Shown here in pieces: positions 11,983 to 16,758 of a stretch of 32,170 bases of DNA (its first letter is position 1; every line of letters starts with the position of its first letter). The notes beneath the pieces were generated by a model that was not told the origin of the DNA, did no database searches, and saw only the letters and a list, made by a program, of their open reading frames with translations. This stretch comes from Abditibacteriaceae bacterium (lineage in GTDB: Bacteria > Armatimonadota > Abditibacteriia > Abditibacteriales > Abditibacteriaceae). Made by a program: the position numbers and the translations under genes. The stretch spans positions 1 to 32,170 of the forward strand of contig JANMKN010000261.1 of the NCBI GenBank assembly GCA_031372065.1, given 5' to 3'.

Positions 11983-12627
11983 ATGACCCTCGTAAAATCC
12001 AAACAAAGAGTCGCCGACCACGGAGAGGTTTTCACGCCGCCGTGGATGGTCGAGGCGATGCTCGACCTTGTGAAAGGCGAGACCGAACGCATTGACTCGC
12101 GCTTTCTTGAACCGGCCTGCGGCAACGGCAATTTTCTCGTGCAAATTCTGCGGCGCAAGCTGGCCGCTGTGGAACTCAAATATGGTCAGTCCGATTTCGA
12201 GCGACGGCACTATGCGTTGCTGGCGCTGATGTGCATTTATGGCATCGAACTGTTGCCGGACAACATCGCCGATTGCCGCGCGAACCTGCTGGACATCTTC
12301 GCCGAATATTTAAACCTTGATGAGTCCGACGATTTTTATCGCGCCGCCGTCTTTGTGCTTTCGGTGAACCTCATTCACGGCGATGCCATGAAAATGCTCG
12401 CTTGGGACAATTTGCCGATTACCTTTGCCGAGTGGGGTTATCTTGGGAAAGGCCGCTTTCAACGCCGCGACTTCAGTTTAAAAAGCCTCACAATGTCTTC
12501 GACGTTCAGCGCCGAAGACTCGCTCTTTGCCCAACTCGGCAAACATGAGATATTCACGCCCACCAAAACCTATCCGCCAATGACGGTGCGTGAACTGGCG
12601 GCCCTTGCACCGGAGATCACCGAATGA
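11983..12627 (+). CDS. Short N6-adenine DNA methyltransferase-fold protein (motifs X, I, II, III; no motif IV)
   Basis: GEVFTP, FLEPACGNGNFL, IYGIELL, IHGDA; no NPPY/DPPY in 214 aa. Confidence 0.88.
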   Translation: MTLVKSKQRVADHGEVFTPPWMVEAMLDLVKGETERIDSRFLEPACGNGNFLVQILRRKLAAVELKYGQSDFERRHYALLALMCIYGIELLPDNIADCRANLLDIFAEYLNLDESDDFYRAAVFVLSVNLIHGDAMKMLAWDNLPITFAEWGYLGKGRFQRRDFSLKSLTMSSTFSAEDSLFAQLGKHEIFTPTKTYPPMTVRELAALAPEITE

Positions 12628-14222: not shown

Positions 14223-16758
14223 GTCCATCGAAGAAATCCTCGCGCCGAAGCCAGAGGCACGCCCACGCATTTACGCCTACACGATTGACGACAAAGCGCA
14301 CGCGGGATTGCTCAAGGTGGGGCAGACCACGCGCAACGTGAAGCAGCGCGTCGCCGAGCAACTCAAGACCGCCAACATCAAGAACTACACCATTGTGCTG
14401 GATGAGTTGGCCGAGCGCGACGACGGCTCGACGTTCACCGATCACGAAGTGCGCGCCGCGCTCGTCAAAAAGGGCTTCGAGAACACCGCACTGGAATGGA
14501 TGCGCTGCAAGCAGGCGGACGTAAAAACCGTTCTCGCCGAGCTACGCTCCGGCCAGAAGTTCACCGGCACGCATCACGAAACTTTCCCCATGCGCGCCGA
14601 ACAGGCCGATGCTGTCGAAAAGACGCACGCCTATTTCCATTCCATCTGGCAGGAGGATATGCACGCCGTGCCGCGTTTCCTGTGGAACGCGAAAATGCGC
14701 TTCGGCAAAACCTTCACGGCCTATCAACTGGCCCGCAAACTGGAAGCAAAGCGCGTGCTTGTGGTAACGTTCAAGCCCGCCGTGGAAGATGCGTGGCAAA
14801 CCGACCTTGAATCGCACGCGGATTTCGATGGCTGGCAATATCTCTCGCGCCATTCCAATAGCGACCCGTCGAAAGTTTCATCCGCGAAGCCGCTGGTCTA
14901 TTTCGGCTCGTTTCAAGACCTCTTAGGCCGCGACAGCGCAGGGAACATCAAGGCCAAAAACGAATGGCTCCACGGGATGAATTGGGACTTGGTGGTCTTT
15001 GACGAATACCATTTTGGCGCATGGCGCGAGACAGCCAAGGAACTGTTTGAGGGCGAAGAAGAAGCAGTCGCCAAGAAAGAAACCAAACTGGAATATGCCG
15101 CCGGTTTGGAAAACATAAACGAAGACCTTGCGATTCTCTCGGAGAAGGAAACCGACTTCCTGCCGATTACGACAAAGGCTTACCTTTATCTTTCTGGCAC
15201 GCCGTTCAAGGCGCTCGCCACCGGCGAGTTCATCGAAGAGCAAATTTTCAACTGGACTTACACCGACGAGCAGCGCGCCAAAGAAGAGTTCGCTGCCCAA
15301 AACCCCGGCAAGCGAAATCCTTACGGCGCGTTGCCGAGGTTACACCTGCTGACATATCAGATGCCGCCGGAGTTGATAGCCGTCGCCAGCGCTGGAGAAT
15401 TTGATGAATTTGATTTGAACGCCTTCTTCGAGGCCACCGGCACGGATGTTCTGGCGCAGTTCAAACACAAGAGCGACGTGCAAAAGTGGCTCGACATCAT
15501 CCGTGGCGGATATACACCCAAAACGGTGGAACAACTCAAGACCGGTTCGCGCGCTCCGTTCCCGTATTACGACGCCACTCTGCTGCCGTATCTCCAGCAC
15601 GCATTTTGGTTTCTTCCCAATGTGGCGGCGTGTCACGCGATGGCGAACTTGTTGGCCGATAAACATAACGTTTTCTGGCACGACTACAAAGTGATTGTCG
15701 CCGCCGGTGCCACGGCGGGCATCGGTTTGGAGGCGCTGCCGCCGGTGCGCGCAGCCATCGGCAGCGGCTTCGCCACCAAGTCCATCACACTCTCCTGCGG
15801 CAAGCTCACCACCGGCGTCACCGTGCCGCAGTGGTCGTCCATCCTGATGTTACGCAATCTAAAATCGCCGGAGACCTATTTTCAGGCGGCGTTTCGCGTG
15901 CAATCGCCGTGGTCTATCAAGAACCCTAACGGCAACAACCCGAACGAAGAAGAAATCCTCAAGCCAGTCTGCTTCGTGTTCGACTTCGCGCCCACCCGCG
16001 CCCTGCGGCAACTTTCCGAATATGGCATTGGCCTTTCGCCTAACGAATCGAACCCTGAGAACGCCGTCAAAGACCTTGTTTCATTTCTGCCGGTGCTGGC
16101 CTACGACGACGCGAACATGATGCAGATTGATGCGGGCGACATCCTCAACATCGCAATGGCTGGCACCTCGGCCACGCTACTGGCGCGTAAGTGGGAAAGC
16201 CCGCTCTTGGTGAACGTGGATAACGATACTCTGCGCCGCATCCTCAATAATCCCGAAGCATTGGCCGCCGTGGAGCGCATTGAGGGCTGGCGTTCGTTGG
16301 GCGACAACATCATTGAAACCATCATCAATAAGAGCGAGAAGATAAAAGAACTCAAAAACAAGGCAAAGAACAAAGAGTTGTCACCCAAAGAAAAAAAACA
16401 ACTCACCGACGAAGAGAAGGAGTTCAAATCGAATCGAAAGCGTGTTCAGGATAAGCTCATCAAGTTCGCAACACGCATTCCTGCGTTTATGTATTTGACC
16501 GATTTTCGGGAGAACAAACTACAAGACGTCATCACCAAGATTGAGCCGGACTTATTCGAGACTGTGACTGGCCTCACGGTGAAAGATTTCCACCTACTTG
16601 TGCGACTCAAGGTTTTTAACACCGAGCAAATGAATCAAGCGGTCTTCGCATTCCGGCGTTACGAGGATGCTTCGCTCCGTTATACCGGTGTCGAGAGCCA
16701 CGCGGGGCTGACCCATTACGGCCTTTACGACACGGTGGTGGCACGGGAGACTGATTGA
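14215..16758 (+). CDS. GIY-YIG/T5orf172-like nuclease fused to an SF2 (ResIII-like) helicase; putative restriction subunit
   Basis: IYAY...LLKVGQTTR.V.QRV...EW; Walker A AKMRFGKT, Walker B FDEYH, motif III LSGTP, LTTGVTVP, YFQAAFRVQ; ATG 14215 overlaps the upstream gene by 8 bp. Confidence 0.88.
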   Translation: MSKSIEEILAPKPEARPRIYAYTIDDKAHAGLLKVGQTTRNVKQRVAEQLKTANIKNYTIVLDELAERDDGSTFTDHEVRAALVKKGFENTALEWMRCKQADVKTVLAELRSGQKFTGTHHETFPMRAEQADAVEKTHAYFHSIWQEDMHAVPRFLWNAKMRFGKTFTAYQLARKLEAKRVLVVTFKPAVEDAWQTDLESHADFDGWQYLSRHSNSDPSKVSSAKPLVYFGSFQDLLGRDSAGNIKAKNEWLHGMNWDLVVFDEYHFGAWRETAKELFEGEEEAVAKKETKLEYAAGLENINEDLAILSEKETDFLPITTKAYLYLSGTPFKALATGEFIEEQIFNWTYTDEQRAKEEFAAQNPGKRNPYGALPRLHLLTYQMPPELIAVASAGEFDEFDLNAFFEATGTDVLAQFKHKSDVQKWLDIIRGGYTPKTVEQLKTGSRAPFPYYDATLLPYLQHAFWFLPNVAACHAMANLLADKHNVFWHDYKVIVAAGATAGIGLEALPPVRAAIGSGFATKSITLSCGKLTTGVTVPQWSSILMLRNLKSPETYFQAAFRVQSPWSIKNPNGNNPNEEEILKPVCFVFDFAPTRALRQLSEYGIGLSPNESNPENAVKDLVSFLPVLAYDDANMMQIDAGDILNIAMAGTSATLLARKWESPLLVNVDNDTLRRILNNPEALAAVERIEGWRSLGDNIIETIINKSEKIKELKNKAKNKELSPKEKKQLTDEEKEFKSNRKRVQDKLIKFATRIPAFMYLTDFRENKLQDVITKIEPDLFETVTGLTVKDFHLLVRLKVFNTEQMNQAVFAFRRYEDASLRYTGVESHAGLTHYGLYDTVVARETD

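Follow-up and report, generated by a model that had tools for sequence, protein, structure and literature searches.

A putative split amino-methyltransferase with a conserved internal start codon in a three-gene restriction-modification-like cassette of an Abditibacteriaceae bacterium

In gamma-class amino-methyltransferases, motif I forms the site for S-adenosylmethionine (SAM) and motif IV the catalytic site, as described in PMC3874165. The same text defines Type ISP restriction-modification (R-M) enzymes such as LlaGI and LlaBIII, which carry an Mrr-like nuclease, a translocase, a gamma methylase and one target recognition domain (TRD) on one polypeptide. DnmA-YeeB-YeeC and OspHL35III combine an MmeI-like methylase, a translocase and a GIY-YIG nuclease in a three-gene cluster, and DnmA is reported to be necessary and sufficient for methylation (PMC9973331 and PMC4752239). 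Methylases naturally built from two chains are represented by M.AquI and M.EcoHK31I (PMC3404938), both of them C5 enzymes whose two chains part at the variable region or at motif IX. Here, we analyzed a cassette of three open reading frames (ORFs), A, B and C, in a 32,170 nt stretch of DNA from an Abditibacteriaceae bacterium (GCA_031372065.1, contig JANMKN010000261.1, positions 1-32,170, forward strand), the whole of which is referred to as the window. Judging from sequence comparison, the cassette is likely a DNA-defense system and an intact member of a very common, apparently undescribed R-M family, and the comparative evidence argues strongly for a short product nested within B and for exchangeable half-domains. 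This evidence consists of the motif pattern, gene co-occurrence, conservation of a start codon and its Shine-Dalgarno sequence, rearrangement boundaries and the exchange of a specificity segment.

The three ORFs are encoded on the + strand in the order A-B-C, with overlaps of 4 bp (A/B) and 8 bp (B/C), and A and B are translationally coupled. Gene A (11983..12627, +) encodes a 214 aa protein equivalent to the SAM-binding N-terminal half of an amino-methyltransferase of the gamma class. It has motifs X, I, II and III (GEVFTPP, EPACGNGNFL, YGIEL and GDA) but no NPPY of motif IV. Sequence similarity to N6_Mtase is weak, and the AlphaFold model of A (predicted local distance difference test score, pLDDT, 89.6) matches the N-terminal halves of MmeI (Z 9.9), M.EcoKI (Z 9.3), DrdV and CamA (Z range 8.2-9.9). 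All 81 A proteins of close relatives, window included, have retained GEVFTP, YG[IV]E and a motif I of the GxG type, which together with 97% identity to A of the same-genus genome G003 rules out that A is a pseudogene fragment. Gene B in its long form (B-long, 12624..14222, +, 532 aa) shows the reciprocal pattern, with a degenerate SAM half followed by an NPPY catalytic half and a TRD (DEVFTPP, DPCTKSG, FGIAI, GNPPY). Motif I lacks its first Gly, and motifs II and III lack their acidic residues. B matches the Eco57I family (PF07669); its match to MmeI is weak. A K[ST]G (K-type) motif I, a non-acidic motif II and GNPPY are found in 56/56 B proteins of close relatives, window included; across pooled K-type B sequences, the motif II position is occupied by A, G, C, S or P in 264 of 278 ORF copies and by D or E in none, with 14 copies unmatched. 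On these comparisons, the reciprocal A/B pattern is neither chance nor decay.

The degenerate half of B (B-N, 12624..13217, +) is a conserved pseudo-SAM half that contains a CxxC/His insertion and is a putative link to C. It is homologous to the A N-terminus (hhalign probability 96.6) and, among close relatives, more strongly conserved than the TRD. Within it, His151, Cys158, Cys161 and His183 (window 13074-13172) are invariant or nearly so and could form a zinc site, which is missing in several distant forms. Over residues 14-504, the B AlphaFold model can be aligned to CamA, a gamma methylase (Z 22.0, root-mean-square deviation 4.6, 412 aligned residues), indicating that B keeps its degenerate N-half; M.BseCI, M.TaqI and LlaGI (Z 20.2) align as well. 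This whole gamma-class fold rules out that the long form of B is literally half a protein, and together with the N-half fold of A it means that a single C-half is matched by two N-halves, of which that of A is intact and that of B degenerate. Gene C (14215..16758, +, 847 aa) combines a T5orf172 (GIY-YIG-like) domain (ca. 14272-14541) with a superfamily 2 (SF2) helicase/translocase and a helical tail. Its first 125 residues exceed the Pfam T5orf172 cut-off (31.6 bits versus 20) and residues 124-277 match ResIII. Y20, Y22, K34, G36, D76, E94, the Walker A GK and the Walker B DE are invariant in 40/40 close relatives and R45 is kept in 39/40. Sequence searches for solved relatives found none, one of them giving only weak RadD/UvrB matches. 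The layout, the overlaps, the reciprocal motif loss and the T5orf172/SF2 assignment of C agree with a preliminary description of this DNA, and the conservation of the A motifs and of the B losses in relatives bears it out. Its proposal of a methylase split over A and B is supported in part, with the correction that the long form of B is no half protein.

Type ISP enzymes resemble the cassette in the nuclease-translocase-gamma methylase-TRD order seen in relatives with C fused to B (C::B), in the single TRD and in the SF2 translocase motifs of C (ResIII match, invariant Walker A and B). They differ in their nuclease, T5orf172/GIY-YIG-like in C, and in being single polypeptides, whereas the window has three genes and fused relatives with enough upstream sequence keep a separate A or a divergent form, A'. 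The degenerate in-chain SAM pocket, the separate SAM-half gene and the internal start described below likewise set the A/B/C family apart. In contrast to DnmA-YeeB-YeeC, nuclease and translocase are fused in C, and MmeI_Mtase remains below cut-off for both A and B. Compared with M.AquI and M.EcoHK31I, A and B represent an amino-methylase putatively split between motifs III and IV, in which a second, dead N-half would compete for the C-half. With respect to the gamma class itself, the motif order X-I-II-III-IV, the class fold and a TRD at the C terminus are present, the model of A covering the N-half of this fold; no single chain combines an intact motif I with motif IV, A carrying motifs I-III and B motif IV with a K-type motif I.

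An internal start in B likely releases the catalytic half as a separate protein. Met199 of B (ATG at 13218) is in frame, lies 8 residues before NPPY (13242-13253) directly after GGAGACAAT, and is preceded by a Shine-Dalgarno-like GGAGA (13209..13213, +) whose GGAG core ends 5 nt before the ATG. The predicted nested product, B-short (13218..14222, +, 334 aa), comprises motif IV onward and the TRD, and matches PADLOC profile PDLC03375 over positions 10-346 of 348. The Shine-Dalgarno sequence pairs with CCUCCU at -6.4 kcal/mol, a value reached by 0.7% of 4587 internal ATGs in the genome, and the anti-Shine-Dalgarno is present in the genome's own 16S. Of 225 distinct K-type B loci, 223 have a start codon 8 residues before NPPY (ATG 215, GTG 7, TTG 1), as do 25/26 clusters at 60% identity, and the B search patterns did not include this position. 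Every Val but one at this position is encoded by GTG and the single Leu by TTG. The exceptions, L318 (GTC) and L325 (ATC), both lack A and are two of the three A-less loci; the third, L084, is flanked by insertion sequence elements. Canonical gamma methylases used as controls have a start codon at this position in 0/8 cases in the window's own genome and 0/3 among the loci, and L360, a G-type helicase fusion, likewise has none. All 121 distinct B loci of an initial set have ATG, GTG or TTG at the internal position, and the Shine-Dalgarno sequence of 103 of them reaches -4 kcal/mol or lower, versus 13% of 893 other in-frame ATGs. When synonymous codons were redrawn with the amino acids fixed, the observed mean of -7.0 compared with -4.4 and was reached in 0/200 replicates; the bias holds separately in the FGGxM subtype and in the remainder. 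The Gly at -3 is encoded by GGA in 72/77 cases against a background of 21%. One restriction gene with two in-frame products from an internal start is known from McrB, the short form of which does not bind DNA and is regulatory, whereas B-short would keep the TRD and be catalytic.

Several side observations touch this region. Immediately 5' of the internal Shine-Dalgarno, the window contains a short GC hairpin followed by a T-run (13189-13202); a conserved RNA hairpin at this place was rejected, consensus folding of 94 loci yielding no structure. L318:1-7450 and L325:1-7448 carry B and C, no A and no internal start, and upstream encode an NPPF methylase, which we take to be EcoRI-like, and an unknown 340-aa gene. 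The helicase-methylase fusion of L360:2338-6153 has an intact G-type motif I and no separate A was detected there; it may resemble an ancestral single-chain state.

Natural rearrangements of the family all break or join at one boundary, that between B-N and B-short, as read from their gene layouts. Besides separate A, B and C as in the window, we found A followed by a C::B fusion; A or A' with a C::B-N that stops short of motif IV, B-short being encoded separately (L179, L367); A'::B-short followed by C::B-N, with the Shine-Dalgarno and ATG retained inside the fusion (L364-366, L368/L370); phage A and B-short without B-N (L131, L193, L340, L345, L348); and single-chain A::B-short fusions. B-N is thereby found on the C terminus of C without the remainder of B. 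B-short is encoded separately in all five of these phage loci, in L179 and L367 and in the isolated Tenacibaculum phage PTm1, where the region gp277-gp279 (L372:3004-5436) encodes B-short, a helix-turn-helix gene and A', gp277 and gp279 being the two halves. No C gene was detected in the available flanks of the phage A + B-short loci, the L131 contig ending right after B-short. Among 120 longer A-containing proteins, 26 run into whole B, 37 lack B and 57 join inside B. These 57 junctions fall at B190-203 in 41 cases, at 150-189 in 8, at 21-149 in 4 and after 203, beyond NPPY, in 4; 41 junctions in a 14-residue window are not what deletion debris would give. A::B fusions are spread over the A tree with 29 label changes, at least 5 of them forced by strong branches, in a tree built from a short alignment by a quick method. 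Met occupies the internal-start position in only 30/50 A::B fusions. C::B fusions (114 of a set of 120, 6 without a motif IV match having been dropped) carry a K-type motif I in 104 cases, a G-type in none and an unmatched one in 10, and A or A' lies upstream in 11/11 fused loci with room for it. As side observations, L207:2313-5511 contains a full B and, after it, another copy of B-short whose Shine-Dalgarno and ATG are nearly identical, which might be a spare cassette for specificity, and the phrog_11371 profile, L193 and L356 show a permuted order with the B-short-like catalytic half before the A-like SAM half.

Comparison with G003 revealed an exchanged specificity segment in B (13320..14210, +). 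DNA flanking the segment is 95% and 94% identical to the window while no alignment is obtained within it, as expected for specificity exchange; at the protein level, identity is 38% in the TRD and 94% in B-N.

The family is widespread, in line with the earlier expectation that the triplet is not rare. A comprises at least 8000 clusters at 90% identity (all 8000 scored candidates passed), and across 401 genomes of the window's phylum B was matched in 28 and A in 31. Phylum searches starting from G419 and G418 returned window-type layouts only. Among 80 fetched genome loci with A, a B match is present in 69, and the other 11 extend no more than about 2.2 kb downstream of A. Conversely, of the 145 K-type B loci whose upstream sequence measures 2.5 kb or more, 142 have A or A' there, 80 of the 225 loci having been dropped for too little. 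Reciprocal motif loss is also found on plasmids of Lactococcus, Lysinibacillus, Variovorax, Mycolicibacterium and Legionella adelaidensis. Gaps of 0.5-3 kb separate A, B and C at many loci (L001, L002, L009, L015, L050, L054, L056, L062 and others), suggesting inserted accessory genes.

We consider it probable that B-short and A form a split N6-methyladenine (m6A) methylase and that B-long, with its dead SAM half, directs C to ATP-driven restriction, one TRD sequence serving both arms. The internal start would yield two proteins, B-short and B-long, with B-short (beta4 onward, NPPY and TRD) as the module common to both arms. Strands beta1-3 of A would complete the strands of B-short from beta4 on, giving an m6A methylase that marks one strand of an asymmetric site in the cell's own DNA. 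Whether in cis or in trans, B-N would complete B-short to a SAM-blind reader that recruits C, and B-long would aim this nuclease-helicase at unmethylated sites for ATP-driven, Type ISP-like cleavage; one-strand marking and cleavage between sites are proposed by analogy to Type ISP. Whichever N-half is fused to B-short, the other would receive free B-short by way of the internal start. A single TRD-coding sequence for both arms would allow a specificity swap without mismatch between methylase and nuclease. It is possible, and offered tentatively, that the cassette represents an unclassified R-M type in which the catalytic/TRD half changes between the methylase and the restriction complex through Rossmann-half exchange (A versus B-N::C), the internal start setting the ratio and phage A capturing host B-short. 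The preliminary description had given the SAM pocket to A, the catalytic half to B and coupled both to an ATP-driven nuclease, in agreement with the upstream A or A' and with A::B fusions that delete B-N, but had not addressed how this could work with the degenerate N-half that B itself carries. There is less support for its other suggestion, that A acts as a host regulator or a decoy; stand-alone A is seen, but in phages.

A number of observations weigh against B-short and its pairing with A. K-type B loci are related by descent, so locus counts overstate independence, and L318 and L325 are near-relatives and count as one event. No Shine-Dalgarno at or below -4 kcal/mol is found in 53/225 loci, including 8/15 fused loci. 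Loci without it are lower in GC content (0.42 vs 0.51), and Shine-Dalgarno strength at the A start is no predictor of that found internally (p 0.08 and 0.39), a comparison that gives no support to host initiation style as the cause. Of the C::B fusions, 13/114 carry none of M, L and V at the Met199 position, L and V being scored at the protein level. The A model places its own strand 147-155 in the beta4 register (pLDDT ca. 96), and this strand would have to move for B-short to pair. The hairpin nevertheless looks dispensable, since several A::B fusions join at A137-149 and the A paired with B-short in L193 diverges after motif III; some phage A proteins, that of L193 among them, stop soon after this motif. 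B-long models as a complete fold, leaving room for a non-canonical SAM site. Finally, random A::C fusions exist and some A::B fusions may be debris.

These points bear on three other explanations. The missing clear Shine-Dalgarno in 53/225 loci would be expected if A completed full-length B by displacing or swapping with its degenerate half, with no B-short and Met199 kept for structural reasons, and the A-B co-occurrence in 142/145 loci and the translational coupling of the two genes fit equally. We regard this as unlikely because it leaves unexplained the use of GTG or TTG where Met is replaced, the synonymous GGA bias, the loss of the start in A-less loci and its retention in loci with A'::B-short and C::B-N. 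The whole gamma fold of the B model, the invariance of its odd motif I, the two B + C loci without A (L318, L325) and an A that folds stably alone in the model and occurs alone in phages would all suit a full-length B that methylates by itself through a non-canonical K[ST]G pocket, with A as a SAM-sensing regulator, guard or decoy. The lack in B of a first Gly in motif I and of acidic residues in motifs II and III, A::B fusions that remove B-N at the catalytic boundary and phages that keep A and B-short without B-N make this rather improbable, and the NPPF gene upstream in L318 and L325 may replace the methylase there. A split methylase could also be real with a C that does not restrict, the cassette being an epigenetic or selfish module comparable to dnmA-yeeB-yeeC of B. 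subtilis, which gave no phage protection according to PMC9973331. With nuclease and motor residues invariant, the specificity segment exchanged between close relatives, patchy carriage (B in 28/401 genomes) and Vibrio DnmA-YeeB homologues cited as protective in that paper, we consider a non-restricting C very improbable.

The cassette would operate in the manner of Type ISP or DnmA-YeeB-YeeC, but lacks the features that define them. The remaining described systems fit poorly, in line with the preliminary description, which saw no clean fit to Types I-IV. Type IIG enzymes (Eco57I, BpuSI) have an N-terminal nuclease, whereas B starts with a methylase N-half and the nuclease lies on C together with the ATPase. 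Type I systems use a separate HsdM and a two-TRD HsdS, while the TRD here is part of B and no S-subunit match was found among the long ORFs of the window. Type III Mod proteins belong to the beta class (PMC7544214), in contrast to the gamma motif order and fold of B. As in MANTIS (Gao_RL) and bacteriophage exclusion (BREX) systems, methylation would depend on partner proteins, and the MANTIS effector is a helicase-nuclease; in the A/B family the partner would be half of the catalytic fold, and window profile searches found no AAA+ loader or BREX genes. PADLOC profiles PDLC03626, PDLC03375 and PDLC03390 match the C::B fusion, B-short and A', respectively, so the sequences have already been catalogued by curators. 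Their labels read either stand-alone Type IIG enzyme or Type II methylase, and none of the sources consulted links the halves. Among PADLOC and NCBIfam systems, only generic methylase/IIG profiles matched, with MAD2 and PglX far below cut-offs. No description of the A/B/C family or its internal start was found in the literature searched, most subscription journals, REBASE and DefenseFinder being outside reach, and this agrees with the earlier statement that no mechanistic account was known. No link could be made to the two-gene Pin17F Type IIG system. The 13 one-motif gold-standard entries in Table S9b of 10.1101/2023.12.13.571470 may include members with assigned motifs and may bear on the novelty of the family.

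A-like genes of 146-248 aa as called also occur alone in phage contigs (L136, L177, L180-L182, L185, L186, L188-L190, L192, L194-L196), and motifs X, I, II and III are kept in 11 aligned stand-alone phage A proteins. In 12 A-only viral records, 7 of which are 99-100% complete (three of these seven being near-relatives), a phage B-short query that matched both positive controls gave no match at E 0.01. The B profile matched only A itself, weakly, in two records, and the Eco57I family exceeded its cut-off in 2/12, one of them a canonical methylase. A counter-defense role of stand-alone phage A is possible. In one reading, phage-only A may capture host B-short and methylate phage DNA with host specificity, which would amount to specificity-independent anti-restriction. 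SAM sequestration, or a partner too divergent for detection, may explain these genes as well.

If the proposed model is correct, A and B represent a natural amino-methylase split within its catalytic fold and a new way to change specificity without self-cutting while methylase and nuclease are still separate. An annotated methylase gene of this family cloned alone would then give no methylation, and methylome motifs could stay unassigned. A natural split m6A enzyme would be usable for targeted methylation, and phage counter-defense would be open to test. The family is carried on plasmids and phages besides genomes of the window's phylum, and the PTm1 pair would lend itself readily to a test of the split methylase.

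The cassette is present once in its genome, has a GC content slightly below that of its flanks and is embedded in a sulfatase/transporter gene cluster. The surrounding sulfatase, esterase, fucosidase, beta-helix and sodium-symporter genes (1-11753 and 16913-24086) form a polysaccharide-use cluster that the cassette interrupts. An imperfect palindrome 5' of A (11876-11912), presumably similar to repetitive extragenic palindromic (REP)-type repeats, has one copy in the genome. On the minus strand, a cyclase-NB-ARC-TPR gene beside a large WD40-repeat gene (25756-31922) resembles a pair of the signal transduction ATPases with numerous domains (STAND) kind, with a possible role in signaling or defense.

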